Origin: a virus
Taxonomy: Duplodnaviria > Heunggongvirae > Uroviricota > Caudoviricetes
Direction: 5' to 3' (one strand)
DNA: 41,514 nucleotides
IMG/VR virus record: IMGVR_UViG_2690316276_000005
Each line of letters starts with the position of its first letter. The first letter of the stretch is position 1. Made by a program: the position numbers and the translations under genes. The notes beneath the pieces were generated by a model. It made no database searches. It had not been told where the DNA came from and saw only the letters and a list, made by a program, of their open reading frames with translations. Of this stretch, positions 4,176 to 24,117 are shown piece after piece.

Positions 4176-7079
4176 TTAAATACTCGCCACATTATACCAA
4201 GTGCCATTTATATACTTTTGCACTGGCCTGTAATGAACGCCTGCAATATTATCGGCAGAGTTTTTTCCGGTATCCTGTACGTTAATCCCCGTCAGTACAT
4301 AGCCTGACGGGCACTGAAAATTCCATGTTTGCCAGTTGTTCACTCCATAATATTGCTGTGAACCAAGTCGAACATCTTTCACATATCTGGAATCAAAATT
4401 GCCATAGTTGCCGGGAATAACTTGCGAGCCGCAAAGCCAGTTCCCGTTATTATCCATGTACGCCTGACCATCGGTGCCATTGGCTGTCCTTGAGTTATTA
4501 ATCATGTAGATGCCAAATTGCTTATTTCCCAGACCGCCAATCATAAATTTGCGGTCGGCATGGTCCTGACGGAGCAAAGCCTGAGCACCATCAGTGGATA
4601 CCGCATTACGTCCCAAAATAACATTCTGGTCACGCATATGAATCCACATGCCGGTACTACTGTTAATTGCAAAACGGTTTGCAAATATATCCCCTGTAAC
4701 ATCAAGACCATGCCCCATGCTTATCCGGCCAGTTCTGAGATTAAGCGTAAAGGGGCGTAGTGGCCCTATATTACCATTTTCCCCTTCATTCTCTCGTGTA
4801 GGGATGATATGCAGGCATTCTTCAGAACGACGAAAAATGGCACCAAAAGATGAATTAAATATCCTCAGTGCATTGACTGTCGATATTTTCACTTCACTGC
4901 TGAAAAGGGCTTCAACAAGAACAGACAAAGCATTCCATTTAAGATTCATCAGGTCTTTAGGCCGGGTGCCAATGATGCGGTGTCTCCATTTGAAATATTC
5001 ATTGCCGTTGTTGCCTGTTTCAAACCACATGTAGGAATCGGTGTCTGCATCCGAATTATTTTTAAACCCAATCTTTGCCCAGTCAGTATTTCGAATCCAG
5101 GCAAGGATTGAGTCGTTTTCAAAAGTAAGTCCACCGGACAACGTATCGCCATTTTTTTGCACGGCGTTACCAGCCTTGTTTACCGTTTCCTGTAAACCGA
5201 GGTATTCGATAACGGCGGCAACGGTCGATTTCGCAAGAATATCCCGCCCGACTTTTGTCAGGGTTGCCAGGCTGGCGACATCATTCCCCGTAAAATACGG
5301 AAACTTGCCTGCCGCAGTAGTAAGTCCGGCCAGCGCCGTCAGGGTGGCATCTTTCGGTTGCTTACCCGCAAGCGCGTTAGTCATGGTGGTCGCAAAATTC
5401 GGGTCGTTGCCCAGCGCCGCAGCCAGCTCGTTCAGCGTGTTCAGTGCATCAGGTGACGAATCTACAAGGGCGGCAATCGCAGCCATAACGAAAGCCGTGC
5501 TTGCGATTTGGGTATTATTCGTTCCCTGTCGCGCAGTTGGTGTTGTTGGCGTTCCGGTCAGTGCAGGACTATTTAAGGGCGCTTTCTTGTTCGTTTCACC
5601 CATTACCGCCTTAACCGCTTTTGGCGTTGCCGCCAGTGACTCGGAAGTGCTGTTGGTCGCACTGCTGAGCTGTACTATCCCCTTTTTCGTCGTGCTCGCA
5701 TCCTCAAGCGCCACGGCGGATGCAATATCCTCTGCCCGTTTTGCTGCTGTCTCGGCGCGCGTTGCCGCGGATTCAGCAGCAACTTTGCTCTGAGATGCAG
5801 CCGTCGCACTGCCTGCCGCCTCTGATGCTTTCGTTGTTGCTGTCGTGGCACTACCTTTCGCTGCTGACGCTTGTCTGGTCGCCTCATCTTTTGAAGCAGA
5901 CGCAGATGATGCCGATGACGCCGCTGAACTGGCTGACGATGCGGCTGCTGCCTTAGAGGAAGCAGCATTGTCTGCTGAAGTCTTTGCATTTGTTTCAGAG
6001 GTTTTTGCTGCAGAAGCAGACCTCGCTGCTGCAGTGGCTTGCTCAGTGGCTTTGCCAGCCTTCGTTGTGGCTGTTGAAGCGGATGATGCGGCGCTTTCTG
6101 CCGATTTTCCGGCGGCGGTGGCACTGGCTGAGGCCTGCCCGGCACTTGTTGACGCGGCGCTGGCAGACGACGCAGCCGCTGTTTTTGAGCCTGCCGCAGC
6201 TGAGGCACTCTGTCCCGCTGCCGTTTCAGAAGACCTGGCGTTCGTCTCGGACGTTTTGGCCGCCTTCGCAGAATTTGCAGCCGCCGTCGCCGAGGAAGCT
6301 GCGCTACTGGCGCTTGATGATGCGTTCGTTTCTGATGATTTTGCCGCCTCTTTTGAAGCCGACGCATCCCGGGCTGAGGTGGCAGCTTCTGACGCTTTCG
6401 TGGTCGCGGTGGATGCAGAAGTGGCTGCTGATTGTTGTGACGCTGCCGCATTCGTTTCTAACGTTTTCGCCGCACCGGCACTGGTAGCCGCCGCGCTTTT
6501 TGAGGACTCTGCAGCGGCAGCACTTTTTGAGGCTTCAGTGGCCTTTGTTGATGCCGTTCCTGCGCTGGAAGACGCTGACTGAGCCGACGAAGCGGCCTGT
6601 CCGGCTGACGTGCTGGCTGCACGTGCTGAATCTGCAGCATCAGTCGCATGGGTTGCCGCCTCACGGGCTGATGTGCTGGCATCGCTGGCTGATTTCTTCG
6701 CGGCTGCCGTGTTCTGTGCCACCGCGGACGCGTTACGCGCCACCTCTTCCACCATCAGCTCAAAACGGCGCAGTGCCTCCGGACGGGCATCATCCTCCGT
6801 CATGGCACCGAGAAAATCATTCAGCGTACCGGGTCGGGAATCTTCATACACGGTGATGGTCCCGGCATGTGACGGCGGGAATCCTTCCACCAACAGAATA
6901 ACGCTGTACTGACCGTACTCAACGTCCATGCTGTAACGCCCGGCTTCATCCGGATTTTCTGAGGCCAGCGTGTTCACCACCACCGTGGTGCTGTTACGTT
7001 TTGCTTTCAGCTGGATTGTGCAGTTCTGTACCGGTTTTCCTGTGCCGTCTTTCAGTACACCTGAAATCTTTACTGCCAT
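4176..7079 (-). CDS. stf: Side tail fibre protein (lambda Stf-like N-terminus, long Ala/Ser/Thr-rich repeat region, P2 H-like distal part)
   Basis: N-terminus [26 protein letters not shown]... as in lambda Stf; central low-complexity A/S/T repeats; then [33 protein letters not shown]...[10 protein letters not shown]... shared with the P2-H-like fragment at 15804-16594; ends ...[13 protein letters not shown]. True ATG at 7077-7079 (ORF track starts at GTG 7085). Confidence 0.9.
5187..5212. other. Gin/Hin/Cin/Pin-family crossover-like site (imperfect dyad) inside stf
   Basis: TTCCTGTAAACC GA GGTATTCGATAA: two 12-bp imperfectly inverted half-sites around a 2-bp core, resembling the Mu gix site as recalled. 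The reverse complement of window positions 1-17 (TTCTCGTAAACCGAGGT) matches it 15/17. Both lie at the EYLGL codons. Confidence 0.45.
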
Positions 7080-7334: not shown

Positions 7335-7740
7335 CCCGCCGGTTCAGGCGGGCTTTTTTGTGGGGTGAATATGGCAGTAAAGATTTCAGGTGTACTGAAA
7401 GACGGCACAGGAAAACCGGTACAGAACTGCACAATCCAGCTGAAAGCAAAACGTAACAGCACCACGGTGGTGGTGAACACGCTGGCCTCAGAAAATCCGG
7501 ATGAAGCCGGGCGTTACAGCATGGACGTTGAGTACGGTCAGTACAGCGTTATTCTGTTGGTGGAAGGATTCCCGCCGTCACATGCCGGGACCATCACCGT
7601 GTATGAAGATTCCCGACCCGGTACGCTGAATGATTTTCTCGGTGCCATGACGGAGGATGATGCCCGTCCGGAGGCACTGCGCCGTTTTGAGCTGATGGTG
7701 GAAGAGGTGGCGCGTAACGCGTCCGCGGTGGCACTGGCTG
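7335..7740 (+). repeat. Inverted duplicate of the stf upstream hairpin and first ~123 codons
   Basis: 7335-7367 is the reverse complement of 7085-7115. 7371 onward encodes [10 protein letters not shown]...[11 protein letters not shown], identical to the N-terminus of the minus-strand stf. At about 7740 the sequence switches to a minus-sense stf copy, so ORF 7365-8189 is chimeric. Confidence 0.7.
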
Positions 7741-8665
7741 AGGCCTGCCCGGCACTTGTTGACGCGGCACTGGCAGATAATGCAGCCGCTGTTTTTGAAC
7801 CTGCCGCAGCTGAGGCGCTCTGTCCCGCTGCTGTTTCAGAAGACTTAGCGTTCGTCTCGGACGTTTTTGCCGCCTTCGCGGAATTTCCTGCCGCCGTTGC
7901 CGAGGAAGCTGCACTACTGGCACTTGATGATGCATTCGTTTCTGAAGATTTCGCTGCCTCTTTTGAGGCCGCCGCACCCCGTGCCGAGGTGGCAGCTTCT
8001 GACGCCTTCGTGGTCGCTGTGGATGCAGAAGTGGCTGCCGATTTTTGTGATGCTGCGGCATTCGTTTCTGACGTTTTCGCGGCACTGGCGCTGGTAGCTG
8101 CCGCGCTTTTTGATGACTCTGCAGCAGCACTTTTTGCTGCTTCACGGGCCTTTGTCGATGCCGTTCCTGCGCTGGAAGACGCTGACTGAGCCGACGACGC
8201 GGCCTGTCCGGCTGACGTGCTGGCGGCACGTGCTGAGGCTGCAGCATCGGTTGCATGAGTTGCCGCCTCGCTGGCTGATTTTTTCGCGGCTGCCGTATTC
8301 TGTGCAACCGCGGAGGCGTTACGTGACACCTCTTCCACCATCTGCTCAAAGCGGCGCAGTGCCTCCGGTCGGACATCATCCTCCGTCATGGCACCGAGAA
8401 AATCATTCAGCGTACCTGGTCTGGAACCTTCATAGACGGTAATGGTCCCGGCATGTGAAGGCGGAAAACCTTCAACCAGCAGGGTGACGCTGTACTGACC
8501 ATGCTCAACATCCATGCTGTAACGTCCGGCTTCATCCGGATTTTCAGAGGCCACCGTGTTCACCACCATCGTGCTGCTGGTTCGTCTGGCCTTCAGCACA
8601 ATGGTGCAGTTCTGTACTGGTTTTCCTGTGCCATCTTTAAGCACGCCAGAAATTTTTACTGTCAT
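7740..8665 (-). pseudogene. Second stf 5' copy (about 308 codons, diverged paralog), truncated at the inverted-duplication junction
   Basis: [58 protein letters not shown]... then A/S/T repeats. Roughly 90 percent similar at protein level to the stf N-terminus, with a DNA direct repeat of about 6115-7079. Confidence 0.65.
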
Positions 8666-8816
8666 ACTTTTCCACCAATAAAAAAAGCCCGCAGCAGTGA
8701 CGCCACGGGCTTCAGGACAGTGTAACTTTACGTTTCCTCAAACGCAGTTCACCCCATAAGGTGGATGAACCTGCGTATCATAACAATATTTACAGAAGAT
8801 AAATCGGCGTCTGTTG

Positions 8817-9416
8817 TCAGATACGGTATCCGATACCAACAATAAATGCATCCGTTCGCCAGTCACCACTACCGGAACCTTCATAAGCAAGGTCAATGGT
8901 CACGGATTCGGTCGGGTTAAACTGCACGCCAGCCCCCCACGCCAGAGACGTGTTGCTGTGGCGACCGTCATCACTTCCGGTCAGCACATCGTGCGTTTTC
9001 CCCTTGTTGTCAGTTACGCGGAGATAATCCCCGGAGAAAGTCGACACACGGCTGTAAGCCACACCCACCATCGCATACGCGCTGAACCATTCATTCACGC
9101 GTACAGACGGCCCCGCCATCACGCTGAACCAGCGGTTACGCACGGAATCTTCATGCCAGCGGGTATCGCTGTAGTGCGTTTTTTGCTCATCCTCAGCATT
9201 GGCATAACTGAAGGACGTAATCAGCCCCAGCGCGTCCGTAAACTCATAACGGTATTTCACGTTAATCCCGTTCAGATTATCGCTGCCGGGAGCGTTCGTA
9301 CGGGCATGAAGATACCCCGCGCTCAGTGTGGACTGATGTTCAGACGCCCATGCAGGCGCACCGGATACGGCCAGGCAAATGGCTGCGGACAAAATGGCTG
9401 CACAAACTTTACGCAT
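8817..9416 (-). CDS. lom: Lom-like outer membrane protein (Ail/Lom/OmpX family)
   Basis: Signal peptide MRKVCAAILSAAICLAVSGAPAWA; beta-barrel body ending ...AFIVGIGYRI; sits between J and stf as in lambda. Confidence 0.9.
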   Translation of the reverse strand: MRKVCAAILSAAICLAVSGAPAWASEHQSTLSAGYLHARTNAPGSDNLNGINVKYRYEFTDALGLITSFSYANAEDEQKTHYSDTRWHEDSVRNRWFSVMAGPSVRVNEWFSAYAMVGVAYSRVSTFSGDYLRVTDNKGKTHDVLTGSDDGRHSNTSLAWGAGVQFNPTESVTIDLAYEGSGSGDWRTDAFIVGIGYRI

Positions 9417-9440
9417 AATTACCTCTCGCTTTTCTGCAAT

Positions 9441-9464
9441 AAAAAAGGCGCCATTTCTGGCGCC
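9441..9464 (-). terminator. Rho-independent terminator-like hairpin downstream of J
   Basis: On the minus strand GGCGCC-AGAAAT-GGCGCC followed by a T-run; lies between J stop and lom start. Confidence 0.5.
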
Positions 9465-9483
9465 CGTATATGGGTTATAAAAT

Positions 9484-12400
9484 TCAGCTGATACTGATGC
9501 CTGCGGTGGCTTTCTTCATCACCACAACCAGCAAATCGCTGATACTTGCTGTGGGATACCAGTTATTCACCAGCCATGCTGACACCGAAAACTCCAGCGT
9601 CATGTGGCCGCGACCAGCTGGCATATCAATAACACCACTGTAAATCAGCGTATTATCCAGCGCGGTACGGTTATAAATTTCAGCACCGTTTTTCCGTACT
9701 ATCAGGCGGCATGACGAATAAATATCGTTATTCTCCCGCTCATGTTTAGCGCCGCTGAATGCCACCGCCGGAATAACAATTTGCCTGTCAAAAGGCTGAT
9801 CGTCATAAATCCTGACGGTAATGGTCCCTGATGGCCACCGCTCCGGTGCCCGGGAGTCCCGCGGAAAAGCCTTACCCACTGTTTTGACTATATCGCCTTC
9901 AATCTGGTTGGCTGACAGTTTCCCCTTAATCTGACAGTTCTCATTAATTGTGACATTGTTGAGCGTCCCGGCGTTCGCATTCACACTGCCACTGATATCT
10001 GCATTTTTAGCGGTCAGTTTTCCGTCCGGTGTCAGGGAAAATGCCGGAGGATTACCGCCGCTGGTAATGGTGGGAGCCGTCAGGCGTTTCAGGAACACGT
10101 CGTTCATGAATATCTGATCGCCCTGACCAACAAACATCGGCTTTGTGTTGCCATTCGCAGGATTAATCATCGCAATCCTGTCTGCCGCCAGCAGCACCTG
10201 ACTCTGCATTCCTGCTGGCGTATTCTCAATACCGGCACCGATACCCGCAATATAAAGGCGTCCGTCCTTCATCTGTTGCAGCTTCACAGCCCACATGCTG
10301 TTCAGATTATTATTTGTATCAACCTGAACCTTCTGTATCTGCTGGATTGCCGCACTCTGGTCTTTCAGTTTCTTATTGACAGTCTGCGTGATTTCATTGC
10401 TGACATCCGTAATGGACGTCCTGATTTCAGCCAGGTCAGGCGCAAGCTGACCGTTATCAATCTGCGTCCACAGCTCCTGAGCCAGATGTGTTTTCCCTAT
10501 CTCTCCTTTGAAAAAATCCAAGTAACCTTCCGCATCATCGCTCGCCCGACCGACAGCCTCCACGAATGCCGATTTGCCAACGGTGTTCACACTGCGAACG
10601 TAAAAATAATAATCATGGCCCGGTTTGATATTGATACTGGCGGCTATCCAGTACAGCGCCGTGCCAAGATAGCGTGCTGTGGTTTCAACCTGCCTGATAT
10701 CCGCAATCCGCTTTTCCGAGAACCAGAACTCAAACTGTACCGTCGGGTCATAAACGGCAAGATGCGGCGTTGCGGTTATCTGAAAATAGCCCGGCGTCAG
10801 CTCAATCCGCGACAGCGCTGCCGGTGCGGCAATCCGGAACGATACCGACGCCGGATCGCCCTGCTGCCCCCACGCATTTACTGCCCGGACTGTCAGCCTG
10901 TAGTTCCCCAGCGCCAGTTGTGTGAAGCGGTAAGTGGTTTCCGTCGTCCGGGCCGTGCTGACCAGCCGCTCACTGCCGTCATCCGCTGTTACGGTCAGAC
11001 GGAGCAGGAAGCTCACGCCCTTCACCACCTTCGGCGTGTCCCAGCGCGCCAGCACCTGATATTCCCCGCTGTCTGCGGTGACTTCGGCAGTCAGGTGCTG
11101 CACCGCTGGCGGCGTGACACCATTCACCGTGCCGCTCTGGTCGCCGTCAAAGTGCGCCCCGTTATCCACGATGGCTTCTTTTTCCGGCACATGCTGCACG
11201 GCGGTGATGGCATACGTGCCGTCGTCGTTCTCACGGATACTCACGCAGCGGAACAATCGCTGGTGCAGCGTCGGCAGCTTCAGCCCCCACACGCTGTATT
11301 CAGCAACACCGTCAGGAACACGGCTCACTTTTACCTTCACGCCGTCGGTGACGGACTGGACCTCCACGCTGACCGGATTCCCCTGCCCGTCAACCAGGCT
11401 TATCAGCGTGGTGCCGGAGGATGGCAGCGTGATTTCACGGTCGAGCGTCAGCGTCCGGGTCTGGCTGTTCACCGCCAGCACGCGCCCGCCGGTGCGGATA
11501 CCGGCATAGTCATCATCGCAGATTTCAATGACATCGCCCGGTACATGACGAAGCCCTTCAGCACCCACGCTGAAATCCACGGTCTGCGTCTCCAGCAGTT
11601 CCGTTTTAATCAGCCACAGCCCGGCGCGGTGTGCCTGCCCCCGGCTGGTACAGCCAAAGGCATCCATCTTCGTGACGTTACGACCGTAACGGACAATGGC
11701 CTGCGTATCCTCCACAAGCTCTGTCGCCGTCTCCCAGCCGTTATCCGGGTCAATCCAGTTCACCTCAACGGCATTATGGCGGTCTTTCAGGGCGCTGAAA
11801 CTGTAGCGGAACGGCGCGCCATCATCCGGCATCACCACATTACTGCGGTTATAGGCCCACACCTTATCCGACTGTCGGTCCTGCACGAACGTCAGCGTCT
11901 GCCCGTTCCATACCGGCATACAGCGCATCGCCGAGCAGAAATCACTGAGCACATCCCACGCCTTGCGCTGTGTGGTCAGCCAGGCATTACAGGTGATGCG
12001 CGGCTCCGTGCTGCCAAAGCCGTCCGGCACCGACTGGTCACAGTACTGGCCGATGACATACAGCGCCCATTTATCCACATCTGCCGCACCAAGACGTTTC
12101 CCCATGCCATAGCGCGGATGGGTCAGCATATCCCACAGACACCAGGCCATGTTGTTGCTGTATGCCGGTTTTAACGTTCCGTCCCAGATACCGCTGTATT
12201 GCCGCGTCTGCGGATTATAGTTCGACGGCACCTGCAGAATGCGCCCGCGAAGATGATAATTACGGCTCACCTGCTGGCTGCCGAACTGCTCCGAATCCAC
12301 CTGTACGCCGACCAGTGCCGTGTTCGGGTAGCACTGTTTCACATCGATGATTTCGGTGTATGACGACCAGAGCGTTTTGTTCTGCAGCTGGTCTGTGGTG

Positions 12401-12963
12401 CTGTCCGGCGTCATTCTGCGCATCCGGATATTAAACGGGCGCGGCGGCAGGTTATCCACCACCACCGAGGCCAGATACTGCGAGGTGGTTTTGCCCTTAA
12501 TGGTGATGTCTTTTTCCGTCACCCAGCCACCGTTACGCTGTATCTGAACCAGCAGGCGAACTTCAGACGGATTCCTGTCTCCCTTTGAGGTGGTTTCCAC
12601 CAGTGCCTGTACACCGAAGGTAAAACGCAGTCGGTCAATGTTTGCCGACGTGATGGTCCGGGTGATCGGCGTGTCATATTTCACTTCCGTACCCAGCACC
12701 GTCTCGGAGCCGGAGGATTCAAATCCCTCCGGCGGTGACTGCTCCTGCTCACCTGCCCGGAACACCACCGTGACGCCGGAGATGTTGGTATTCCCCTCAC
12801 TGTCCAGCACCGGCGTACTGTTCAGCAGCACGCTTTTTAATCCATCCACCGGACCTTCAACCGGCCCTTCGCTGATGGCATCGATCACACTCAGCAGCTG
12901 CGTGGACTTCAGGTTGTCCTTCGCTTCGCGCGGGGTATGCCCCTTACTGCTGCCTTTACCCAT
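9484..12963 (-). CDS. J: Tail tip / host specificity protein J (central tail fibre)
   Basis: 1159 aa; [54 protein letters not shown]... is collinear with lambda J as recalled. Confidence 0.95.
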
Positions 12964-13023
12964 TCGTCATGCTCCATAAACGATAAAACCGCCCGGAGGC
13001 GATTTCACATAAAACATTTTGCA

Positions 13024-13695
13024 TCAGCGACCAATCACCACAACCTGACCACCGTCCCCTTCGTCTGCCGTGCTGATCTCCTGAGATACCACACGTGACC
13101 CCACGCGCATTTCACCATACAGAACAGGCATAACATTGCCCTGGGCAACCATGTTATCCAGTGAGGAGAAATAGATGTTCTGCTTACCGTTATCCGTTGT
13201 CTGTGTGCGGGGAGTTCTGGCTTTCGGTGCCAGCATCTGAGCCACACCGCCGAGCACCATACTGGCACCGAGAGAAAACAGAATGCCGGTCATACCACCG
13301 GCACCAATGGCAGCCCCCCATGCTGCAAGGGTGGCTCCGGCGGTAAAGAATGATCCGGCAATGGCGGCTGCTCCCAGGACAATCTGGAATACACCACCTG
13401 ACTTGGCCCCGGCGACTCTGGGAACAATATGAATCACAGCGCCGTCAGGCAGAGCCTCATGTAACTGCGCCGTTAATCCGGACGTGCTAACATCCTGCCC
13501 GGCAATACGCACCTGATACCAGCCGTCGCTCAGCTTCTGACGAAACGCAGGGAGCTGTGTGGCCATCGCCCGGATGGCTTCGGCACCCGTTTTCACACGA
13601 AGGTCGATGCGGCGGCCAAATCGTTGCAAATCCCCGTAAAGGCAGATGCGTGCCATGCCCGGTGACGCCAGAGGGAGTGTGTGCGTCGCTGCCAT
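13024..13695 (-). CDS. I: Tail assembly protein I
   Basis: 223 aa, MAATHTLPLASPGMARICLYGDLQRFGRRIDLRVKTGAEAIRAM... resembles lambda I; position after K. Confidence 0.88.
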   Translation of the reverse strand: MAATHTLPLASPGMARICLYGDLQRFGRRIDLRVKTGAEAIRAMATQLPAFRQKLSDGWYQVRIAGQDVSTSGLTAQLHEALPDGAVIHIVPRVAGAKSGGVFQIVLGAAAIAGSFFTAGATLAAWGAAIGAGGMTGILFSLGASMVLGGVAQMLAPKARTPRTQTTDNGKQNIYFSSLDNMVAQGNVMPVLYGEMRVGSRVVSQEISTADEGDGGQVVVIGR

Positions 13696-14336
13696 TTGTC
13701 GGTATACCTCTCTCGTTTGCTCAGTTGTTCAGGAATATGGTGCAGCAGCTCGCCGTCACCACAGTAAATGGCGGCATGATTCGGCACCGATGAACCAAAA
13801 CAGCACAGCAGCACATCGCCCGGCTGCGCCGCTGACAACGGCACCTGATACAGCCCTGTGGCCTCCAGATTATCCAGATAGAGATTCTGACCGTGACGCC
13901 ACCAGTCATCCTCACGATGAAAATCCGGCATCTCAATCCCCGCCAGATGGTAAGCATCCCGGAACAGCGTGTAACAGTCCGTCACCCCGTGCTCAAAGCG
14001 CCGCCCGGTAAGATGTGGCACACAGCGGAACTTGTGAATCGCCCCCCGGCAGACCAGCCACCACGGCAAATCACTCTGCACCTGCAGCCGCCGGTCGGCC
14101 TCACTCAGCCAGGGCAGACCACCGGGGTGGCTGTGGACCAGTGCCACAATCTCACCCTGCATCTCTGCCTGCAGCCAGTCTTCCGGCGACATACGGAAAT
14201 ACGCCTCCGGCTCACCGGAGATATTCACGCAGGGGAAATATCTTTCCCCCTCCGGCGTTCTTACCACGAAGCCGCACGACTCCGCTGGAGCACATCGCCG
14301 GGCGTGCGCCAGAATCGCTGATTCTGTCTCTGTCAT
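13593..14336 (-). CDS. K: Tail assembly protein K (MPN/JAB plus NlpC/P60 domains)
   Basis: MTETESAILAHARRCAPAESCGFVV...HSHPGG (JAB motif) ...DCYTLFRDAYH (NlpC/P60 Cys). The ORF as drawn overlaps I by about 100 bp; the true 3' end is uncertain. Confidence 0.85.
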   Translation of the reverse strand: MTETESAILAHARRCAPAESCGFVVRTPEGERYFPCVNISGEPEAYFRMSPEDWLQAEMQGEIVALVHSHPGGLPWLSEADRRLQVQSDLPWWLVCRGAIHKFRCVPHLTGRRFEHGVTDCYTLFRDAYHLAGIEMPDFHREDDWWRHGQNLYLDNLEATGLYQVPLSAAQPGDVLLCCFGSSVPNHAAIYCGDGELLHHIPEQLSKRERYTDKWQRRTHSLWRHRAWHASAFTGICNDLAAASTFV

Positions 14337-14341
14337 GGGAT

Positions 14342-15040
14342 TTACTGCGAAAGTTTGTTAATGGAAAGGAAGCCGCCAAAGTTGCCGACGTTATTGCGAA
14401 ACTTACAGCCACTCAGGCATTTGCTGCATTTATCCTTCGTGATGTCGGACGTTGGCTGGTCATATTCATCCGCGACCGCCGGACCGTGATAACCGCACTC
14501 ATCGCCGCGATAGGTCCAGGTGCAGGTGTTGGCCAGCATGATACGTCCCGGAAAAACAGCGCCATCTGTTTCCGTCGGCGTGGACAGTACAAAAGAGGCA
14601 CTCACCGCGCTCAGTTCGCTGCACTGCTCAATGCGCCAGCGGCTGATCACCTCCTGCTCCGGATCGGCGTCACTGTTTCCGTTGACGAAGTTCACCGCAT
14701 CCAGAAAACGGGCGTAAACCTTACGCCGGACCACCGTTCCGCCGACCAGACTCTGTAGATCTTCCGCCATCCCGGTGACCATACCGTACAGGTTAGAAAC
14801 CATCAGCGTGGGGCGCGTACTGGTGCCTTTGCCATTCAGTTCAAAACCACTCCCCTGAATGGGATACGGCTGATACTGTCGCCCCTGCCAGGTGACCGGC
14901 TCACCTTTTTCGTTCTGCTCATTACAGAAAAAATAACGTTCTCCACCGACCTCTGTCAGATCGATTTCCCAGAGCACCACGCTGGCCGACTGCTCCGCAC
15001 GGGTGCATTCATTCAGTGTTTCCTGCCGGATATCCTGCAT
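14342..15040 (-). CDS. L: Minor tail protein L
   Basis: 232 aa, MQDIRQETLNECTRAEQSASVVLWEIDLTEVGGERYFFCNEQNEKGEPVTWQGRQY... lambda L-like. Confidence 0.9.
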   Translation of the reverse strand: MQDIRQETLNECTRAEQSASVVLWEIDLTEVGGERYFFCNEQNEKGEPVTWQGRQYQPYPIQGSGFELNGKGTSTRPTLMVSNLYGMVTGMAEDLQSLVGGTVVRRKVYARFLDAVNFVNGNSDADPEQEVISRWRIEQCSELSAVSASFVLSTPTETDGAVFPGRIMLANTCTWTYRGDECGYHGPAVADEYDQPTSDITKDKCSKCLSGCKFRNNVGNFGGFLSINKLSQ

Positions 15041-15369
15041 CAGTTCACCACCTGTTCAAACTCTGCGCTGAACTCAACACGCAGCATACTGACCCGCGAC
15101 GACCATTTTGCGCAGGTCACCTTTATCTGCCGCCACTCATAAGGCGGCGTCCACAGAAAGGCTTTCCAGCCCCCGTGCTCTTCCAGAAACGACTCCAGTA
15201 CCATGGCCTCCTCACGGGGGACAGAAAGCGTCACGCTGTACGTTTTCAGGTTGGCATTCAGCCCGGCAGGCGCTCGCTGGGAATAGCCATCACCAAAGCG
15301 CACCTTTCTTACAGAAGGGGCCGAAGCCACATCCATACCGGGTTTCACTTTCCAGCGGAAGGTTTTCAT
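15040..15369 (-). CDS. M: Minor tail protein M
   Basis: 109 aa, MKTFRWKVKPGMDVASAPSVRKVRFGDGYSQRAPAGLNANLKTYSVTL... lambda M-like. Confidence 0.9.
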   Translation of the reverse strand: MKTFRWKVKPGMDVASAPSVRKVRFGDGYSQRAPAGLNANLKTYSVTLSVPREEAMVLESFLEEHGGWKAFLWTPPYEWRQIKVTCAKWSSRVSMLRVEFSAEFEQVVN

Positions 15370-15792
15370 CGTCCACCTCCGGAGAACTGGCCACCATCAC
15401 GCATCTGTGTCTGAATTTCATCACGGGCACCCTTGCGGGCCATGTCATACACGGCCTTCATCATCTGTGGACCTGGCAGACCATTCGTACCGTCGTTCTG
15501 AATCACCACGTGATTGTTCTGATTAAAATTAATGCCTTCAGCCCGCCGCATCTGCGCCGGACTTCCGGCACCGCCCACATAACCACCTTCCGCATAGCCG
15601 CGCATCAGCCGGTAGAGATTCCCCACGCCAATCCGGCTGGTTGCCTCCTTCGTGAAGACAAATTCACCACGGTGAACAATCCCCGCTGGCTCATATTTGC
15701 CGCCGGTTCCCGTAAATCCCCCGGTTGCAAAATGGAATTTCGCCGCAGCGGCCTGAATGGCTGTACCACCTGACGCGGATGCGCCGCCACCA
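15369..15792 (-). pseudogene. H: Tail tape-measure protein H, C-terminal fragment only (cut by the N gap)
   Basis: The frame is open from the gap to the stop; it ends ...MRDGGQFSGGGR and overlaps the M start as in lambda. Only about 140 codons are present of an expected roughly 850. Confidence 0.7.
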
Positions 15793-15803
15793 NNNNNNNN
15801 NNN
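15793..15803. other. Assembly gap (11 N) joining lambda-like and P2-like modules
   Basis: N-run; the flanking sequence on the P2 side (15804-16080) is a near copy of stf 5421-5700. Confidence 0.95.
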
Positions 15804-16594
15804 GCCAGCTCGTTCAGTGTGTTCAGTGCATCAGGCGAAGAGTCTACAAGTGCGGCAATCGCAGCCATAACGAAAGCCGTGCTTGCGATTTGGGTATTAT
15901 TCGTTCCCTGTCGCGCAGTTGGTGTTGTTGGCGTTCCGGTCAGTGCCGGGCTGTTTAATGGGGCTTTCTTGTTCGTTTCATCCATTACTGCCTTAACGGC
16001 TTTTGGTGTCGCTGCCAGCGTTTCAGACGTGCTGTTGGTGGCGTTGCTGAGCTGGACAAGGCCTTTTGCGGTCAGCGAGGCGTCCGGGTGACGTCGTGAC
16101 TGTTCATGCTCTTTCAGTTTGTCATCCACGTAATTCACTGTGGCCATCACCATGGTGTTATCCACGGTAAGCGCCACAGTGGCAGTGCTGGATACGGTCA
16201 GAATGGTGCGAAATGTTTGTGCACGTCCGGATCCTTCGGCAACGGTTGGCTTGTAACTTTCGGCAGTATTGCCTACCGCGATCAAATCGCCGTGCTCATC
16301 AAACACACCAATTTCCCGGATCCAGAATCCGCCCGTTTCAGGAGGAATAACCAGCTCCGCAATAATGTGGTTCTGATGTGTTGCGTCCAGGGTGACGCGA
16401 TTAACGGTATGTCGCCACACCTCATGCACAAGACGGGTCTGCTTACTGTCTGGCGTGGGTAAAGTACCGCCGCCGTCACCCACGGCCATATGTGTCAGGC
16501 GGACAGGTTTCCCATCTGGCGCGGTTGCCTGCGCTAATTTTTTTGCACCCGTATCGGTGATAATGGTTTTAAATTTTCGTGTTGTGGTACTCAT
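15804..16594 (-). pseudogene. P2 H-like tail fibre, N-terminal portion only (cut by the N gap)
   Basis: MSTTTRKFKTIITDTGAKKLAQATAPDGKPVRLTHMAVGDGGG...ELVIPPETGGFW...YVDDKLKEHEQSRRHPDASLTAKG...[11 protein letters not shown] then gap. Directly follows baseplate gene I as in P2. The tail of ORF 15605-16594 beyond the gap is an out-of-frame reading of H. Confidence 0.75.
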
Positions 16595-16596
16595 GC

Positions 16597-17160
16597 TTAA
16601 TCGTCCGGATAAATGGTAATGACTTCACCGTCGTAAGTTGCTGCTGCCGCGAAAATATCTCCCTGAATCTCCTGAATGATATTCAGCCCTGTCATGTGGC
16701 GGCTGACCGGGCGGGCATCAGCAATCAACCGCTCCATTTCCAGATACATTTCCTCCGTCACGCCACTGTCCAGCGTGCCAACATCAATCTTGAATGTTCC
16801 GGGTTCGCCGTTGAACTCCCACCACTCAGACACGCGAATGAGGTATCCCAGCGGCTCAATGGCCCGTCGCAGGGCGCTGATGGTTCCTTTGTGTCGGTGT
16901 ATCAGCCATGCATCACGAATCACCTGTCGCTTTGTCTCTTCCGGCCAGTTGCGATCCCAGCGGTCAACGGAAAACGCCCAGGCGAGATAAGGCAGCAGAT
17001 GCACCGGGCAGGTGTCCGGCGACCACAGCGTGTTGAGGTCTGCCGGAATGTCTGTAATGCGTGTTCCGACGGCTTCGGCACAACGCATGAAATTGCTGGC
17101 TGATGGTGGTAACAGTGAATTACTCATTACGCCCACCTTCGCTGATGGTGAATGACTCAC
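16597..17160 (-). CDS. Baseplate assembly protein (P2 gpI-like)
   Basis: ...LWSPDTCPVHLLPYLAWAFSVDRWDRNWPEETKRQVIRDAWLIHRHKGTISALRRAIEPLGYLIRVSEWWE... resembles P2 gpI. Confidence 0.85.
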   Translation of the reverse strand: MSHSPSAKVGVMSNSLLPPSASNFMRCAEAVGTRITDIPADLNTLWSPDTCPVHLLPYLAWAFSVDRWDRNWPEETKRQVIRDAWLIHRHKGTISALRRAIEPLGYLIRVSEWWEFNGEPGTFKIDVGTLDSGVTEEMYLEMERLIADARPVSRHMTGLNIIQEIQGDIFAAAATYDGEVITIYPDD

Positions 17161-18016
17161 AGCGCGCCGCCTGTATGTCGCTGATGGCCATATTCTGTGT
17201 GGGTTCGATTATCTCCACGCGTTGCACACCGTGCACATGCAGTGCGGCAGCAATGGCGGACAACGCCACGTCCTGACCGATAAGCCCCTGCTCAGCCAGC
17301 CACTTCCTGAACGACGATTCAGCCGCAGCCAGAATAGGTTCGGATTCCGGACCGGGGTAAAAGTACAGTTTTGCATTCAGCCGCCATGTCACGATTCTGG
17401 CACTCTGTACGGTCAGGCGGTCGGCCACCGGGCGGGTATCCTCTGCATTCAGAACGGCGCGAACGGTATTAAGCAACGCCTCCGTTGCTGTGCCGTCGCC
17501 CTCAGTGGACAGGATGGAAACCGTCACATTTGCCGGAGACGGACTGATGGCCCGCGCATCGCGCACCAGACCGCTGGCGCTGCGGGCAAAATACTCGTAT
17601 GCGCCTGACGGGCCTGCAACACTCAGGCCGTCATACGCCCGCTGCGCCCGCAGTCTCAGCGAGGTGTCGTTCTCCATCACCACGTCGGTGGTATCCGTTG
17701 CCGGAGTGATAACCAGGCGCTTTGTGTTCATATTGCCCGCGAGGTTGTCCAGGTCTGTTCCGGCGCTGTGGCTCAACATGCAGGCGCGTGCGGCCTCATT
17801 GACCCGCTGGCGTAACAGCATTTCACGAAACGACATGGTTTGAGCGATAACGTTCAGGGGTTCCGATTCCAGTTCCAGTGCGGCGGAGACGACTTCACGC
17901 TGTTCGGCGGGATAAGCTGCAATCATCATGGCCTTTGTGTCAGCCAGAATTGCCTCAAAGTCAGGCTCCGCGATGATGGCGGGTTCCGGTAACTGGGAAA
18001 GGTCAACGGCAGGCAT
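17120..18016 (-). CDS. Baseplate assembly protein (P2 gpJ-like)
   Basis: 298 aa; ...RVNEAARACML...RPVADRLTVQSARIV...PGPESEPILAAA...LHVHGVQRVEI; P2 order W-J-I. Confidence 0.85.
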   Translation of the reverse strand: MPAVDLSQLPEPAIIAEPDFEAILADTKAMMIAAYPAEQREVVSAALELESEPLNVIAQTMSFREMLLRQRVNEAARACMLSHSAGTDLDNLAGNMNTKRLVITPATDTTDVVMENDTSLRLRAQRAYDGLSVAGPSGAYEYFARSASGLVRDARAISPSPANVTVSILSTEGDGTATEALLNTVRAVLNAEDTRPVADRLTVQSARIVTWRLNAKLYFYPGPESEPILAAAESSFRKWLAEQGLIGQDVALSAIAAALHVHGVQRVEIIEPTQNMAISDIQAARCESFTISEGGRNE

Positions 18017-18019
18017 GAT

Positions 18020-18370
18020 TTACTCCCTCAGCGTGATGGTTAATTCAACATTCTGCATGGTCTGCATGACAGTGCCCGACAGCGTCACCCCGGCGTGGCC
18101 TCCTGCCTTCCAGACAACGTCGATGGCGTTCAGGGCAATGCGTGGTTCCCATCGTGTCAGTGCAATCACGGTAGCACTCATGCATTGCAGACGCGTGGTG
18201 TTATTCATGGGTTCGTCAATCAAATCAGGCACAAGGCTGCCATATTCCCGTCGCATAACCCGGCTTGCCAGCGGGGTGGTCAGGATGTCCCTGACTGACT
18301 GTTTCAGGTGCGCCATATCGTTCAGGTTTCCCGTCCCGTCCGGGTTCATTCCTGTGTAGCGGGTTGTCAC
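18020..18370 (-). CDS. Baseplate wedge protein (P2 gpW-like, GPW/gp25 family)
   Basis: 116 aa; ...ILTTPLASRVMRREYGSLVPDLIDEP...; position between V and J. Confidence 0.8.
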   Translation of the reverse strand: MTTRYTGMNPDGTGNLNDMAHLKQSVRDILTTPLASRVMRREYGSLVPDLIDEPMNNTTRLQCMSATVIALTRWEPRIALNAIDVVWKAGGHAGVTLSGTVMQTMQNVELTITLRE

Positions 18371-18948
18371 TGCGGGCCTCCTGTCGAATCGCTGCCACCT
18401 TTAACGCCACCGTGCTTATGCGTATGCACTGTGATGCCGTTTGAGGTGAAATCGCCGCCGCTGTGCGTGATATTGCCGCTCATCGTTCCCCCTTTTGTGA
18501 CGTCAAGCGTCGCTGTTCTCAGAAGGTCTGTGCATTCCACGACAGGCGTGTTCAGTGTCACGCTGATGGATGCCTGCAAAGTGGCCGTTTTCATGCCGCT
18601 TGCGCTCAGTGCGCCTGCGTCCGCGTCGTAGCGGAACACCGCGCCGTCCGGCGCGCTGACCACGATTTCTTTCAGGCTTTTGCCGGGTGCCGGAATGGCA
18701 TCACTCCACAGGCTGCCGATTATCATGGCGGTTTCCGGGTTGCCGCCGATGCAGGCAATTGCCACCTGTTCGCCTGGTGATGGCGGAAACCACACGTTGA
18801 AGTCTCCCGCGCGCGTGGTGTTCCAGCGCAGCCAGCCTGTTTCCAGTTCGCCGCTGCGAACGCGCACGCACCAGGATTCCTCATCAACTTCAGAGATGAT
18901 CCCGGTGCGGATGATATTGCTCAGCAGTCGCATGAGTTCTGCGCTCAT
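18367..18948 (-). CDS. Baseplate spike / tail spike protein (P2 gpV-like)
   Basis: 193 aa; ...WFPPSPGEQVAIACIGGNPETAMIIGSL...TKGGTMSGNITHSGGDFTSNGITVHTHKHGGVKGGSDSTGGP, a gpV-type C-terminus. Confidence 0.8.
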   Translation of the reverse strand: MSAELMRLLSNIIRTGIISEVDEESWCVRVRSGELETGWLRWNTTRAGDFNVWFPPSPGEQVAIACIGGNPETAMIIGSLWSDAIPAPGKSLKEIVVSAPDGAVFRYDADAGALSASGMKTATLQASISVTLNTPVVECTDLLRTATLDVTKGGTMSGNITHSGGDFTSNGITVHTHKHGGVKGGSDSTGGPQ

Positions 18949-19580
18949 CGTACAGCCTCCGCAATCCGGCCCAGCACCGTGTTATAAATCAGGCGCTCAT
19001 CTGCCTGGCTGATACCCAGCAGCTCACGTACCGGGTAATCGGTGAAAATGCCCGGCGCAACCTGATCGCGCTCACCGAACTGATGAACGCGTGCAATACG
19101 TGCGGCCACGCCGCTGTAACCCACCGTCACACCGGAAGCATCTGCACGGGCTTTCAGGTAGCGGGCGGTGCGCAGTTTTACGAACATGGAGACGCGCCTG
19201 GTGCTGTCCTGGTTGATGCGCCGGGTGCGTATTTCCAGAAAACGGTCGATGTCATCCCGGTAAAACGTGCGGATATTGTTTTTATCCTCATCCCACCCGG
19301 TGATGGTTCGCCCGTATTTCCCCGTGTCGTGATGCCAGTTTTTCAGCGTGCGTGCTTCGTTATTCCAGATAAAGCGAATGCGCTCCTGTATCCGGGTTAC
19401 GCGGCGTCTGCGTGGTGTCCATGCGGTCCCGTCCGGCGCTTTCTGTGACCGGATACGCGCCTGCTGGGCGCGGCGTAAATCCTGTGCCAGCTTTCTGGCG
19501 ATGTTATTAATGGCCTGCTGATTCAGGCTGTCGCGGATAGCCTCAAAGGTTTCATCCACGCGGGTGAATGCCTTATCCAT
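18945..19580 (-). CDS. Tail completion / virion morphogenesis protein (P2 gpS position)
   Basis: 211-aa ORF between the R and V homologs; assignment is mainly by synteny. Confidence 0.55.
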   Translation of the reverse strand: MDKAFTRVDETFEAIRDSLNQQAINNIARKLAQDLRRAQQARIRSQKAPDGTAWTPRRRRVTRIQERIRFIWNNEARTLKNWHHDTGKYGRTITGWDEDKNNIRTFYRDDIDRFLEIRTRRINQDSTRRVSMFVKLRTARYLKARADASGVTVGYSGVAARIARVHQFGERDQVAPGIFTDYPVRELLGISQADERLIYNTVLGRIAEAVR

Positions 19581-20040
19581 CGCTTTCCCCCCACGTCACA
19601 TCCTGGAATACATGCGACCAGTCGCCTTCGGAAGAGGGCAGGCGGGGTTTTGGCTCCGGCAGGTGTTCTGCCTGCGGTGTGCCCTGACTGCTGCGCGTGA
19701 TGCGAACGCGTTCCCGCAGGGGGAGCGTAAACAGGAGATCGGCGCTGTCATCGTCATTGATAACGGCGGAAAATTTGATGTCCTGATTACGCTCCGGATT
19801 GAGCAACAACTGTGGCTGATTTTCGGATAACCACGCCAGCAGCGGCAGCGTGAGGTCGTCCAGCTCTCCGGCGTAATCCATGACAAACATCACTATCTGA
19901 TAGCGGTAAACAAACGATGGGGTTTCTCCGGTCGTTTCAATGTTGCCGCTCTCCACGAAAATGGTGAATTTTTCCGGGTTGGCATGACACCACCGGCATG
20001 AACGGGTCATGGCTTCACGCAGGGAATCAGTTTTCAGCAT
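19573..20040 (-). CDS. Tail completion protein (P2 gpR-like)
   Basis: 155 aa, MLKTDSLREAMTRS...FTIFVESGNIET...LPLLAWLSENQP... resembles P2 gpR in length and N-terminus. Confidence 0.75.
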   Translation of the reverse strand: MLKTDSLREAMTRSCRWCHANPEKFTIFVESGNIETTGETPSFVYRYQIVMFVMDYAGELDDLTLPLLAWLSENQPQLLLNPERNQDIKFSAVINDDDSADLLFTLPLRERVRITRSSQGTPQAEHLPEPKPRLPSSEGDWSHVFQDVTWGESDG

Positions 20041-20347
20041 GGTTGTTGTCCTCGTTGTTCAGTCGTTGCAGCCTGCGCTGTTCCAGTAATTCAATGGCCC
20101 GCTTATCGGCGTTACAGGTTTCCAGTGCGTCCATGAGGCTGTCGCTCCATATCCCGATGTTTCCCCATGATGGCGTCACCGGAAACGGCGGGGGAAGTAC
20201 GGGGGCGGTCAGCCCTTCCGGGATGAAACGGAACGACGGCGGCGGCGCGGACGCGTTCTGCGTGCTGGTGCAACCGCTCAGTAAAGCGAGCGTCAGGAAC
20301 AGCGCGGGCACATGCATCTGTCGTGATATCGTTGCGTAGCTGTTCAC
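20027..20347 (-). CDS. Outer-membrane spanin lipoprotein (LysC / Rz1-like), partly embedded in the i-spanin gene
   Basis: Lipobox LLSGC after a signal sequence, Pro-rich mature part, out-of-frame overlap with 20112-20585. Confidence 0.6.
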   Translation of the reverse strand: MNSYATISRQMHVPALFLTLALLSGCTSTQNASAPPPSFRFIPEGLTAPVLPPPFPVTPSWGNIGIWSDSLMDALETCNADKRAIELLEQRRLQRLNNEDNNHAEN

Positions 20348-20585
20348 GTCGGATTTCCCCTTCCTGTTGTCGGTTCTGGCGCGCTGTCATGACGTCACGC
20401 AGTACACCGGATGCGGTGCTGATGATGGTGCCGGCCTCTTTCAGGGTCCGGCTGTAATCGTCCAGTTGCGCCTGTGTATAACGGTTGTGTCCGTCTTCCT
20501 GCCCCAGTCTGAATGTCTGCCAGAGTGTTATGGTCAGCAGCGTGAGGACGGTCAGTGCCATCATCAGGATGTAACGCACTTTCAT
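20112..20585 (-). CDS. Inner-membrane spanin (LysB / Rz-like)
   Basis: N-terminal TM (MKVRYILMMALTVLTLLTITLW) followed by a charged helical region; sits between endolysin and R. Confidence 0.6.
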   Translation of the reverse strand: MKVRYILMMALTVLTLLTITLWQTFRLGQEDGHNRYTQAQLDDYSRTLKEAGTIISTASGVLRDVMTARQNRQQEGEIRREQLRNDITTDACARAVPDARFTERLHQHAERVRAAAVVPFHPGRADRPRTSPAVSGDAIMGKHRDMERQPHGRTGNL

Positions 20586-20670
20586 GACTGGCCTCCGGTG
20601 TCACGTAAGCACCATGCACGAAAATCAGTACGACGGTTAACCAGTCCCTGTGAGCGTTCGCCGCCGCTGT

Positions 20671-21126
20671 TCACGAAGTCAGTCTGTTGCACATGTCAGG
20701 CCAGTTGTGCGCCTGTGCATGTTTCCAGATAGTGGTGCGGTGGTAGTTACGGTTCTTATCCCTGAACCACATAAGATTTCTGCATCCAAGATTAAAGGCG
20801 GCATCTGTCATTGCCTCAAACGCGGACTGTGGCATGGCGTTGCCGCTGAAGTTCTGATTTATGCAGTTTTCTGCATGTTGCATATCATTAACCCAGCGCC
20901 CGGCGACTTCCGTTTCGGTGTACAGACGATTTTCCACATGCCCGGTCGAGCCGCACCCCACGGTCATTACCCCGGCAATATCCCGGTAAGGCGTTGCGCG
21001 ACAGTCCTCCCATGTGGCAATGCGGATTTGCGCTTCCGGGCTGGTCCGGAGTTTGTGAGGGGCAATGGAGAACCCCAGCGCCACAATGGCGGCTACGGCG
21101 TAACGTTTAACGGGCAGCTTTATCAT
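20671..21126 (-). CDS. SAR-type endolysin (phage lysozyme)
   Basis: N-terminal signal-anchor-release-like hydrophobic segment (AVAAIVALGFSIA), then YRDIAGVMTVGCGSTGH typical of P1 Lyz / phage 21 R-type lysozymes. Confidence 0.8.
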   Translation of the reverse strand: MIKLPVKRYAVAAIVALGFSIAPHKLRTSPEAQIRIATWEDCRATPYRDIAGVMTVGCGSTGHVENRLYTETEVAGRWVNDMQHAENCINQNFSGNAMPQSAFEAMTDAAFNLGCRNLMWFRDKNRNYHRTTIWKHAQAHNWPDMCNRLTS

Positions 21127-21412
21127 GTGTATCGTTATCCCGCAGAATGTTCAGAGCCTGACGCTCACTGTCGTGAAGTGGCCGTGCGTCTGACTGCGCC
21201 AGGATACTGGCGATGAGTTCATTGCGACGCTGCATGGCGGTTTCCATCAGGCGGCGATGTCGCCAGGCATGTAATGCAGACAGAGAACCGAGTAACAACC
21301 CGGCAAGGGCGATTTTTTCACTGATGGTCATCACGCCTATTGTGGTGGCTGTGACTGATGCCCAGAAGGTGATCCAGTCACTCACCCGCAGAAAAAAACC
21401 TGTTACCATAGC
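21107..21412 (-). CDS. Holin (two predicted TM helices); start codon uncertain
   Basis: Internal Met gives about 101 aa with TM segments DWITFWASVTATTIGVMTI and IALAGLLLGSLSALHAW and a charged C-terminus; immediately upstream of the endolysin. The first 68 codons of the ORF-track call overlap X and look non-coding. Confidence 0.5.
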   Translation of the reverse strand, partial: AMVTGFFLRVSDWITFWASVTATTIGVMTISEKIALAGLLLGSLSALHAWRHRRLMETAMQRRNELIASILAQSDARPLHDSERQALNILRDNDTHDKAAR

Positions 21413-21600
21413 TGTATCATCTCTCGTTGTTTTTTCTTCTCCGGCTCCGGCATTTCCACCTCCTGTCCGGCTTCCAGAAATACCTGTCGGCAGAGTCCGG
21501 GGTTGGCATCCAGCACCTTTTCGGTGACGCCCTGCGTCGTGCCGTAGTACCGGAAACAGAGCGAATCCACGGTGTCGCCTTCCAGTGTCTTCACTTTCAT
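21403..21600 (-). CDS. Tail protein X (P2 gpX-like, LysM-like)
   Basis: MKVKTLEGDTVDSLCFRYYGTTQGVTEKVLDANPGL... resembles P2 X as recalled; internal start of ORF 21403-21633. Confidence 0.75.
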   Translation of the reverse strand: MKVKTLEGDTVDSLCFRYYGTTQGVTEKVLDANPGLCRQVFLEAGQEVEMPEPEKKKQREMIQLW

Positions 21601-22103
21601 CAGCACAACTCCGCAAAGATTCGCGGGCGGCACAGAATGTCAGAGATGGCCCAGCTCACATCGCGCCACAAATCCGATGTCTGTATATCCAGTGCGTCCG
21701 CCCGGCGGTCGCCCTTGTCCGTTGTGTCCGCATCGCGGTAACGCTCCAGAATCAGGGCGCGTGTGGCGGTATAAACAGCATTGCGCCAGTGCCAGAGATT
21801 GACGCTTTCTCCGTTAATTACAGGTGCCGGAACATCGGCCAGCGTCTGATGGCCAGCCGCCTGCTGTTCCTGCTGCCATGCTTCCAGCTCGCGGGTAACG
21901 TGTGCCACGGCCCCGGTGGCGGTATGCAGCAGGCGGGAGGTGGTCACGCGGCCCGGCAGTCGTACCGCCAGACGCAGCTCGCGCAGCACAATATCCGGCC
22001 AGAATGCACCCGCTGAAATACGGGTATCGCCATCTTCGGTGTCGGTGATGTCGTCCTCTGCGGGTCCGGGTTCAGTTCTGGCAACCATACTCATGGGGTT
22101 CAC
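21600..22103 (-). CDS. Head completion / stabilisation protein (P2 gpL-like)
   Basis: 167 aa; ...GAFWPDIVLRELRLAVRL...ADVPAPVINGESVNLWHWRNAVYTATRALILERYR...DLWRDVSWAI... Confidence 0.8.
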   Translation of the reverse strand: MNPMSMVARTEPGPAEDDITDTEDGDTRISAGAFWPDIVLRELRLAVRLPGRVTTSRLLHTATGAVAHVTRELEAWQQEQQAAGHQTLADVPAPVINGESVNLWHWRNAVYTATRALILERYRDADTTDKGDRRADALDIQTSDLWRDVSWAISDILCRPRIFAELC

Positions 22104-22195
22104 TCCTGAAAAAATCGGGCGGTGGGTGCGCGGTGTAAACGGTCACGGAGCCAAACCGGAACACCGCGCACGCCGCCCGCTGACGGGGTCAGTCG

Positions 22196-22996
22196 TTAAC
22201 CGCGCTTCGCCTTCTGCGTCGCGGTGGTTTTTCGTGTTGCAGGCTTCCGCGTTGTCTTTTTACTTTCGCTGCTTTCGTCCTGCGCCTGCTGTGCGCTGGC
22301 GTCTTCTGGTGCGGCTGCGGAATCGGCTTTTTTCAGGGCGCGGGAAAGGGTTGCAATCTCGCGTTTCACACCTGCGTTCTGGTTCAGATGCATCGCTTCG
22401 CGCAGCAGCTTCAGTGATGAGGCCATGCTGTCCGCATCGCTCAGGCCACGGCGGGCAAAGGCGCACGCCTTGCATAATTTGGCGCGCACTTCGTCCGGCA
22501 TATCCTGGTTGGCGACAATTTCCCAAAGTGTGTCCAGTGGTTCGATAAAGACGGACAAATCCGCGTCGGCATCCGTCCCGGCCTGCGTCAGTACCGGATT
22601 GCAGATTTCTTCGGTCAGCACTGTGGCAGCAGTACGGCCAAAGTTATCCGGCATGATGAGGTTGTGACGGACCGCATACGCACCAATACGCAGCGCAAGC
22701 GGAAGATCGCCGCAGTCAATCGCCCACACCATCAGCGTGGCAATCACTTCGTCCTGTTGCCCGCCGTCAGCCTCCAGCGTTCCCTCAATCCAGCCGGAAA
22801 AGTCCGGCAACAACGCTTTTTTGATGTCGGCTTTCGCGCTTCTGGCCTGTACGCCCTTAAGCCGGGCCTGTGCCAGACGCAGACGATACAGCACCTCTTC
22901 ATGCGCGGTACGCGCGGCGTGGTCCACACCTTCATTCGCCCGGCCTGCGCGCTGTGCCATCACGTTCTGCCAGTGTTGCTGTGCAGGAGTAATCAT
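22196..22996 (-). CDS. Terminase small / endonuclease subunit (P2 gpM-like)
   Basis: 266 aa; ...DMPDEVRAKLCKACAF...AGVKREIATLSRALKK... and basic C-terminal tail; position between N and L. Confidence 0.8.
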   Translation of the reverse strand: MITPAQQHWQNVMAQRAGRANEGVDHAARTAHEEVLYRLRLAQARLKGVQARSAKADIKKALLPDFSGWIEGTLEADGGQQDEVIATLMVWAIDCGDLPLALRIGAYAVRHNLIMPDNFGRTAATVLTEEICNPVLTQAGTDADADLSVFIEPLDTLWEIVANQDMPDEVRAKLCKACAFARRGLSDADSMASSLKLLREAMHLNQNAGVKREIATLSRALKKADSAAAPEDASAQQAQDESSESKKTTRKPATRKTTATQKAKRG

Positions 22997-23041
22997 TTTT
23001 TCTCTCCGTTACAGGCGGGCATGATGCCCGCCGTGAGTTGA

Positions 23042-24094: not shown

Positions 24095-24117
24095 AAAAAA
24101 TTTGCTCCTTTGTCTTA

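Follow-up and report, generated by a model that had tools for sequence, protein, structure and literature searches.

The locus described here raises the question of whether the tail genes of a P2-like and a lambda-like prophage have been fused into a single operon. On the minus strand of the window (by which we mean the whole stretch of DNA that was analysed, 41,514 nt), a P2-type tail fibre gene, H, stops at a run of 11 N (15793-15803), beyond which lies the very end of a lambda-type tape measure gene. The window is the entire scaffold CXBB01000028.1 of a draft Shigella sonnei whole-genome shotgun assembly (GCA_001254295.1); its source is a short-read draft. Because four N runs interrupt it (1343-1344, 3306-3316, 7116 and 15793-15803), the scaffold is built from at least five pieces, designated W1 (1-1342), W2 (1345-3305), X (3317-7115), Y (7117-15792) and Z (15804-41514) in what follows. 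The gap between Y and Z and its flanks had been placed correctly in a preliminary description of this DNA. The idea that the 15793-15803 run might be a mask imposed on the window was considered and rejected; the run is original, since public gene calls already cross the gap. Exact look-ups of the J protein, of a 967-amino-acid (aa) fibre and of a 141-aa tape measure fragment returned this record only, so that this route revealed no second, independent assembly of the strain, and a full-text literature search with the accession gave no relevant paper.

Z carries the P2 side of the junction. H starts at position 16594 and extends for 791 nt on the minus strand to 15804, where it is cut by the contig end after 263 codons plus 2 nt (the preliminary description had put the cut at about 260 codons). 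Over these 791 nt the sequence is 100% identical to the start of the gene for a 678-aa fibre in a P2-like prophage of E. coli FDAARGOS_943. Full-length relatives of the cut H carry the PF12571, PF03406 and PF21446 domains. The remaining portion of the prophage (16597-37366) comprises genes I, J, W, V, S, R, the lysis genes, X, L, M, N and O on the minus strand, P and Q on the plus strand, and the replication and early genes, and includes the integrase gene (36389-37366); it is collinear with the prophage adjoining btuC in O103:H2 12009. Beyond its integrase end lie the chromosomal genes btuC-btuE-btuD-nlpC (38600-41485). The late genes were recognised from their Pfam marks (PF05944, PF05926, PF05489, PF06891, PF05069, PF04717, PF04965, Baseplate_J and PF09684). 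Their set and order (Q, P / O, N, M, L, X, lysis, R, S, V, W, J, I, H), together with an integrase at a chromosomal site, are those of a P2-like (Peduoviridae-type) prophage.

None of the contractile tail genes (sheath, tube, E, T, U, D) was found within CXBB01000028.1, and neither was the P2 invertase. In three relatives (the prophages of FDAARGOS_943, L001, and of O103:H2 12009, L006, and the locus on DAZPMN010000039.1, L010), the contractile tail genes sit directly after H, and their absence from the record is due to a contig break. Among the P2 parts initially listed as absent, the sheath, the tube, the P2 tape measure, U and D are indeed not in the window, but the fibre assembly gene is present, at 3647-4174. 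When a collection of genome contigs was scanned with a 40-mer conserved in the P2 E gene, the only matches were to a Salmonella chromosome and to a Vagococcus contig. A 226-kb contig of Vagococcus sp. WN89Y (NZ_JBQPOM010000071.1) contains 2.1 kb (L008, 1-2148) that are 96% identical to this enterobacterial P2-like tail region, which may represent a contamination of the Vagococcus assembly.

On the lambda side, the end of contig Y cuts a tape measure gene of which the last 141 codons and the stop remain (15366-15792, minus strand). The product matches the C-terminus of the 853-aa tape measure protein from a lambda-like prophage of E. coli KKo009 at 141 of 142 positions (141 residues plus stop). 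About 712 codons are missing, in line with the first estimate of some 140 codons left and 700 lost. The gene is followed on the same strand by the lambda-type distal tail genes M (15040-15369), L (14342-15040), K (13593-14336), I (13024-13596), J (9484-12963) and lom (8817-9416), which together span 8817-15369, carry the expected Pfam marks (PF05939, PF05100, PF00877, PF06805, the J domains and PF06316) and are 95.6-96.6% identical to their counterparts in complete lambda-like prophages (L004 and L002). The order H, M, L, K, I, J, lom, stf, tfa is that of a lambda-like distal tail, with H reduced to its last 141 codons. The entire series from M to tfa had been taken for lambda-type. From M to lom this stands on Pfam grounds, but the stf-tfa portion is composite, its C-terminus and tfa being P2-type.

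A genuine hybrid should present itself as a determined, continuous sequence and should be met again in independent genomes. As written, with 11 N, the junction has no such sequence and the reading frame across it is broken; moreover, the N run implies that reads bridging 15793-15803 were probably lacking. The segment from 15000 to 16600 was compared by megablast with 5,426 complete genomes, the reference set being made of E. coli only. One flank or the other is matched in 4,054 of these genomes; both flanks together (within 1.3 kb) are matched in none of the 5,426, and exact protein look-ups gave no independent instance of the junction either. Among the matches listed, all terminate at 15792 or start at 15804. 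On the lambda side, complete genomes continue into the full 853-aa tape measure gene and further tail and head genes, and on the P2 side into the full 678-aa H, tfa, an invertible fibre segment, the invertase, U, the tape measure, E, the tube and the sheath.

The position at which Z stops is the edge of a repeat. The terminal segment of Z (15804-16067, minus strand), which is the P2-H version of a shared sequence (repeat D3), is 89% identical over 264 nt, and in direct orientation, to a segment of X (5422-5685, minus strand), the side-fibre version of the same repeat. This confirms the early remark that the P2 flank duplicates stf near 5421-5700. Position 15804 corresponds to 5422, so that Z ends exactly where the repeat does and X reads through. 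Two stretches are common without a mismatch to the P2 and side-fibre versions, one of 77 nt (5344-5420) and one of 95 nt (5470-5564).

The "stf" reading frame of X (4176-7085) is itself a composite. Its 5422-7085 portion (minus strand) is the N-terminal part of a lambda-type side tail fibre ("stf type A"; PF08400 at residues 3-136), with 93-100% identity to the stf genes of lambda-like prophages at the bio site (ETEC6 and BS15R-A). This is assembled onto a P2-type C-terminus, the last 415 codons being of P2-H type. The latter segment (4176-5421, minus strand; 415 codons plus stop) is the 3′ part of the P2-type H and the true continuation of 15804, as judged from the open frame obtained when the two are rejoined. 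Next to it lies the P2-type tail fibre assembly gene (tfa; 3647-4174, minus strand), G-like, belonging to the Caudo_TAP family (PF02413) and contained in the 3317-5304 interval, and further on part of an invertible fibre segment. The P2-type H C-terminus, the P2-type tfa and a part of the invertible fibre segment are therefore not missing; they are present in the same scaffold, the 3′ part of H lying 10.4 kb away from its cut end.

Several observations support joining 15804 to 5421. Aligned by local BLAST to the FDAARGOS_943 locus, the window gave two collinear matches, one in Z (15804-28596, 99.87% identity) and one in X (3317-5672, 98.6%), which overlap in the reference. The mismatches in X pile up at its right end, with 3 in the 1,988 nt of 3317-5304 and 7 in 5305-5421. 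Placing 5421..4176 after 16594..15804 generates an open frame of 2,037 nt, the same length as H of FDAARGOS_943, and the 678-aa product differs from the latter at 3 residues. When 5022-5421 and 15804-16203 were combined into one query, it matched as a single contiguous stretch in 432 complete genomes (best match, 99.1%). Finally, a search of a large protein collection showed the rejoined product to be identical to a 678-aa protein from S. sonnei (P0001). The gene for this protein is uninterrupted on the N-free S. sonnei contig DAZPMN010000039.1, which matches Z over 10.8 kb except for 7 mismatches and 1 gap and on which H is followed by tfa, tfa′, the alternative fibre gene, the invertase, U, the tape measure, E′, E, the tube, the sheath and D. 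P0001 occurs on 2 contigs as compared with 224 for the FDAARGOS_943-type fibre, and may itself be an assembly chimera; it thus supports the register of the rejoined gene more than its exact sequence, and we argue the rejoining from register and length. In these terms, the alternative join restores an intact, known gene.

Different assemblies thread the fibre region differently, as would be seen with a repeat-induced ambiguity. The DAZPMN010000039.1 contig switches from Z-type to X-type sequence inside the 95-nt stretch, and around the switch the five positions that distinguish X from Z within the last 48 nt of Z are the only ones at which it departs from the Z contig of the window. The 5305-5469 portion of H is found in three versions, one of them in FDAARGOS_943 and another, which changes residues 298, 302 and 303, in X and in DAZPMN010000039.1; the last 48 nt of Z agree with FDAARGOS_943. 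These variants arose either by gene conversion, with the P2 and lambda-type fibre genes as partners, or as chimeras that differ from one assembly to another. In other S. sonnei drafts, the fibre is represented by "partial" proteins that end at contig ends. The same C-terminal domain is also found in a stand-alone protein of 328 aa (P0138), which falls in the cluster of the 967-aa fibre and occurs on 348 contigs, some of them from complete genomes; a 321-aa member of the cluster of P0138 (P0139) is called "Bcv gene product" in one source. Given the occurrence of P0138, the receptor-binding domain of the fibre is also present at other Enterobacteriaceae loci, where it constitutes an additional source of repeats.

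Taken together, the N run at the junction, flanks that are never adjacent in finished genomes, and a contig that ends at a repeat boundary leave us in little doubt that the apparent P2/lambda tail fusion is a scaffold misjoin at a repeat and no real feature. Of the two possibilities named in the preliminary description, a recombinant and a scaffold join at a repeat, the latter had been preferred, and all tests bear this out, whether they concern the N runs, the absence of the join from complete genomes, the normal continuation of the flanks or the end of Z at the repeat.

Other readings were weighed as well. In the first, order and orientation of the contigs are right and the gap is far too small: two neighbouring prophages would be represented, with at least 35 kb hidden in the 11 N, made up of what remains of the P2-like prophage and of the lambda-like left arm. 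Tandem or neighbouring prophages occur in E. coli and Shigella, though nothing direct speaks for such an arrangement here. Against it, the C-terminus of the P2 fibre, tfa and the invertible segment are found in this scaffold, past the lambda-like module, the prophage at the btuC site of O103:H2 12009 has no lambda-like neighbour, and short-insert read pairs would not be able to span tens of kilobases. We consider this reading very unlikely.

Slightly less credible still is a real recombinant, in which an illegitimate deletion or rearrangement fused the P2-like H (at codon 263) to the lambda-like tape measure gene (at about codon 712), yielding a defective hybrid with a few unresolved bases in place of the 11 N. 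The scaffolder did link Z and Y in the given order and orientation, one insertion sequence is present within the scaffold, and S. sonnei genomes contain many such elements as well as decayed prophages. In addition, a gap of 0 or of a multiple of 3 nt would place the two truncated genes in frame (791 + 427 = 1,218 nt); this has a one-in-three chance of occurring, and the in-frame possibility is no evidence for a real fusion. Against a real recombinant, beyond the absence of the join from the 5,426 complete E. coli genomes, neither the 967-aa composite fibre nor the tape measure fragment of 141 aa is known from any other record. A gap of some 11 nt between unique sequences would be spanned by every read lying over it and hence should have been assembled. 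Furthermore, the P2 contig ends exactly where a repeat does, and the sequence that continues it in register lies in the scaffold. The flanks contain neither homology nor an insertion sequence end, and have only the 7-nt string GCGCCGC in common. The least plausible version of events is a dead hybrid locus, with the 263 codons of H fused in frame to the last 141 of the tape measure gene and a side fibre that has captured the fibre cassette. Homologous exchange between H and stf was also considered as the origin of the junction and rejected: it would give an H-stf fusion and not an H-tape measure one. Such an exchange may lie at the origin of the composite fibre gene at 4176-7085.

How might a misjoin of this sort have come about? 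The strain contains a P2-like prophage adjoining btuC and at least one lambda-like prophage, the tail fibre genes of which have in common the 89%-alike segment and, past it, sequence that the assembler could not separate. In a short-read assembly graph, the 77- and 95-nt stretches could merge the two paths. At the resulting fork, the assembler would have run the N-terminus of the lambda-type fibre into the shared C-terminal cassette, generating contig X (3317-7115), and left Z stranded at 15804, the base equivalent to 5422. With both Z and the Y+X chain lying upstream of one and the same cassette, the scaffolder would then have ordered Z, Y and X linearly, and probably set an N spacer of minimum size between Z and Y. 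The true P2 path leads from 15804 to 5421 and into an intact 678-aa H, tfa and the invertible segment. The invertase gene and those for U, the tape measure, the tube, the sheath and D of the P2-like prophage would come next, presumably on another contig.

This proposal can accommodate either two copies of the fibre cassette or one. We lean towards two copies, collapsed in the assembly, of which the P2-like prophage would have one and the other would lie behind a lambda-type fibre. Alternatively, there could be a single cassette, X being chimeric. A patch of variant sequence at 3150-3305 (see below) speaks for two copies; the uninterrupted DAZPMN010000039.1 contig of a relative speaks for one. 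Lambda-like prophages with the fibre cassette and an invertase remnant do exist in complete genomes, where, however, the cassette is only approximately 92.8% identical to the one here over 4700-6300. The near identity seen here (3 mismatches in 2 kb) would be either real, with two copies per cell, or made by the assembler. The junction between Z and Y is spurious whichever of the two arrangements applies.

The gaps at 3306-3316 and 7116 are likewise misassembled. The 2606-3512 segment (plus strand), identified by comparison with the FDAARGOS_943 locus, is the part of the invertible fibre segment that carries the end of the alternative fibre gene and tfa′, broken by the 11-N gap at 3306-3316. 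Positions 2606-3149 and 3317-3512 are 100% identical to that locus, and 3150-3305 is a 91% variant of 3357-3512. One 196-nt tfa′ segment is represented twice in tandem around the gap, by versions (3110-3305 and 3317-3512) that are 93% alike. This is a second scaffolding artefact, with the same signature as that at 15793-15803, and the variant patch suggests that a second copy of the fibre cassette is present in the genome. On the other side of the segment, an IS3-family insertion sequence (1345-2605; transposase reading frames 1409-1711 and 1747-2565) splits the alternative fibre gene. Its insertion point corresponds to 6347/6348 of the FDAARGOS_943 locus, and the 2-N gap (1343-1344) lies at the left end of the element.

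Around the single N at 7116, positions 6716-7118 are a perfect reverse complement of 7332-7734. Within the 213-nt spacer between them (7119-7331) is found an inverted piece (7117-7266) that is 97% like the lom segment at 8940-9089. At 7734/7735 the fold-back meets a second fibre N-terminus (type B; reading frame 7538-8665, 86-90% like type A), where the only string in common is the 10-nt GCGGTGGCAC. The 6716-7734 interval looks like a chimeric fold-back join, and it indicates that the strain has two lambda-type lom-stf loci.

Nothing at the Z-Y junction is new biology; it belongs to the ordinary class of scaffold misjoins. Yet gene models derived from this scaffold are already in public protein sets. 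Public gene calls from the record include a 329-aa reading frame through the gap (15605-16594), the 967-aa composite fibre (WP_072114722.1, 4176-7079), and a 246-aa doubled fibre assembly protein with two Caudo_TAP stretches (2878-3618). The 329-aa and 246-aa models are artefacts; WP_072114722.1, which is on no other record, may be one. Scans for hybrid or mosaic prophages should accordingly count N runs as breaks. The scaffold that carries the cut gene also carries its true partner, and the misjoin is therefore demonstrable with no recourse to reads: locating the in-register continuation at another place in the scaffold suffices.

The features of the junction are those of a short-read misjoin or collapsed repeat, in which, as here, an N run separates two contigs, contig ends fall at a repeat edge, versions of a segment follow one another and gene calls proceed through the N. 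It differs from the usual misjoin in that the correct partner of the cut gene is found in the same scaffold, and shows nothing else out of the ordinary for its class. The prophage itself resembles the btuC-adjacent P2-like prophages with an invertible fibre segment (O103:H2 12009, FDAARGOS_943 and DAZPMN010000039.1), with which it shares the order of genes from integrase to H (95-99.9% identity), the length of H once this is rejoined, and the cassette of tfa, tfa′ and the alternative fibre gene. Unlike these relatives, it is split in the scaffold, H being cut at codon 263 with its 3′ part displaced and the invertase and sheath block off the record. Within this P2-like lineage, the block from the sheath gene to U is convergent with V-W-J-I-H-tfa, the invertase lying between the two, an arrangement we take to be unlike that of phage P2 itself. 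The fibre cassette between invertase and H has opposite orientations in FDAARGOS_943 (L001, 5643-7946) and O103:H2 12009 (L006, 8992-11295), which is what a functional invertible segment should show. P2-, lambda-, Mu- and P1-type phages have long been known to have fibre segments and receptor-binding cassettes in common, and their tail fibre genes are reportedly mosaic. The genes examined here conform to this pattern: a middle segment is common to the P2-type H and the lambda-type side fibre, and so is a C-terminal receptor-binding cassette together with its assembly gene.
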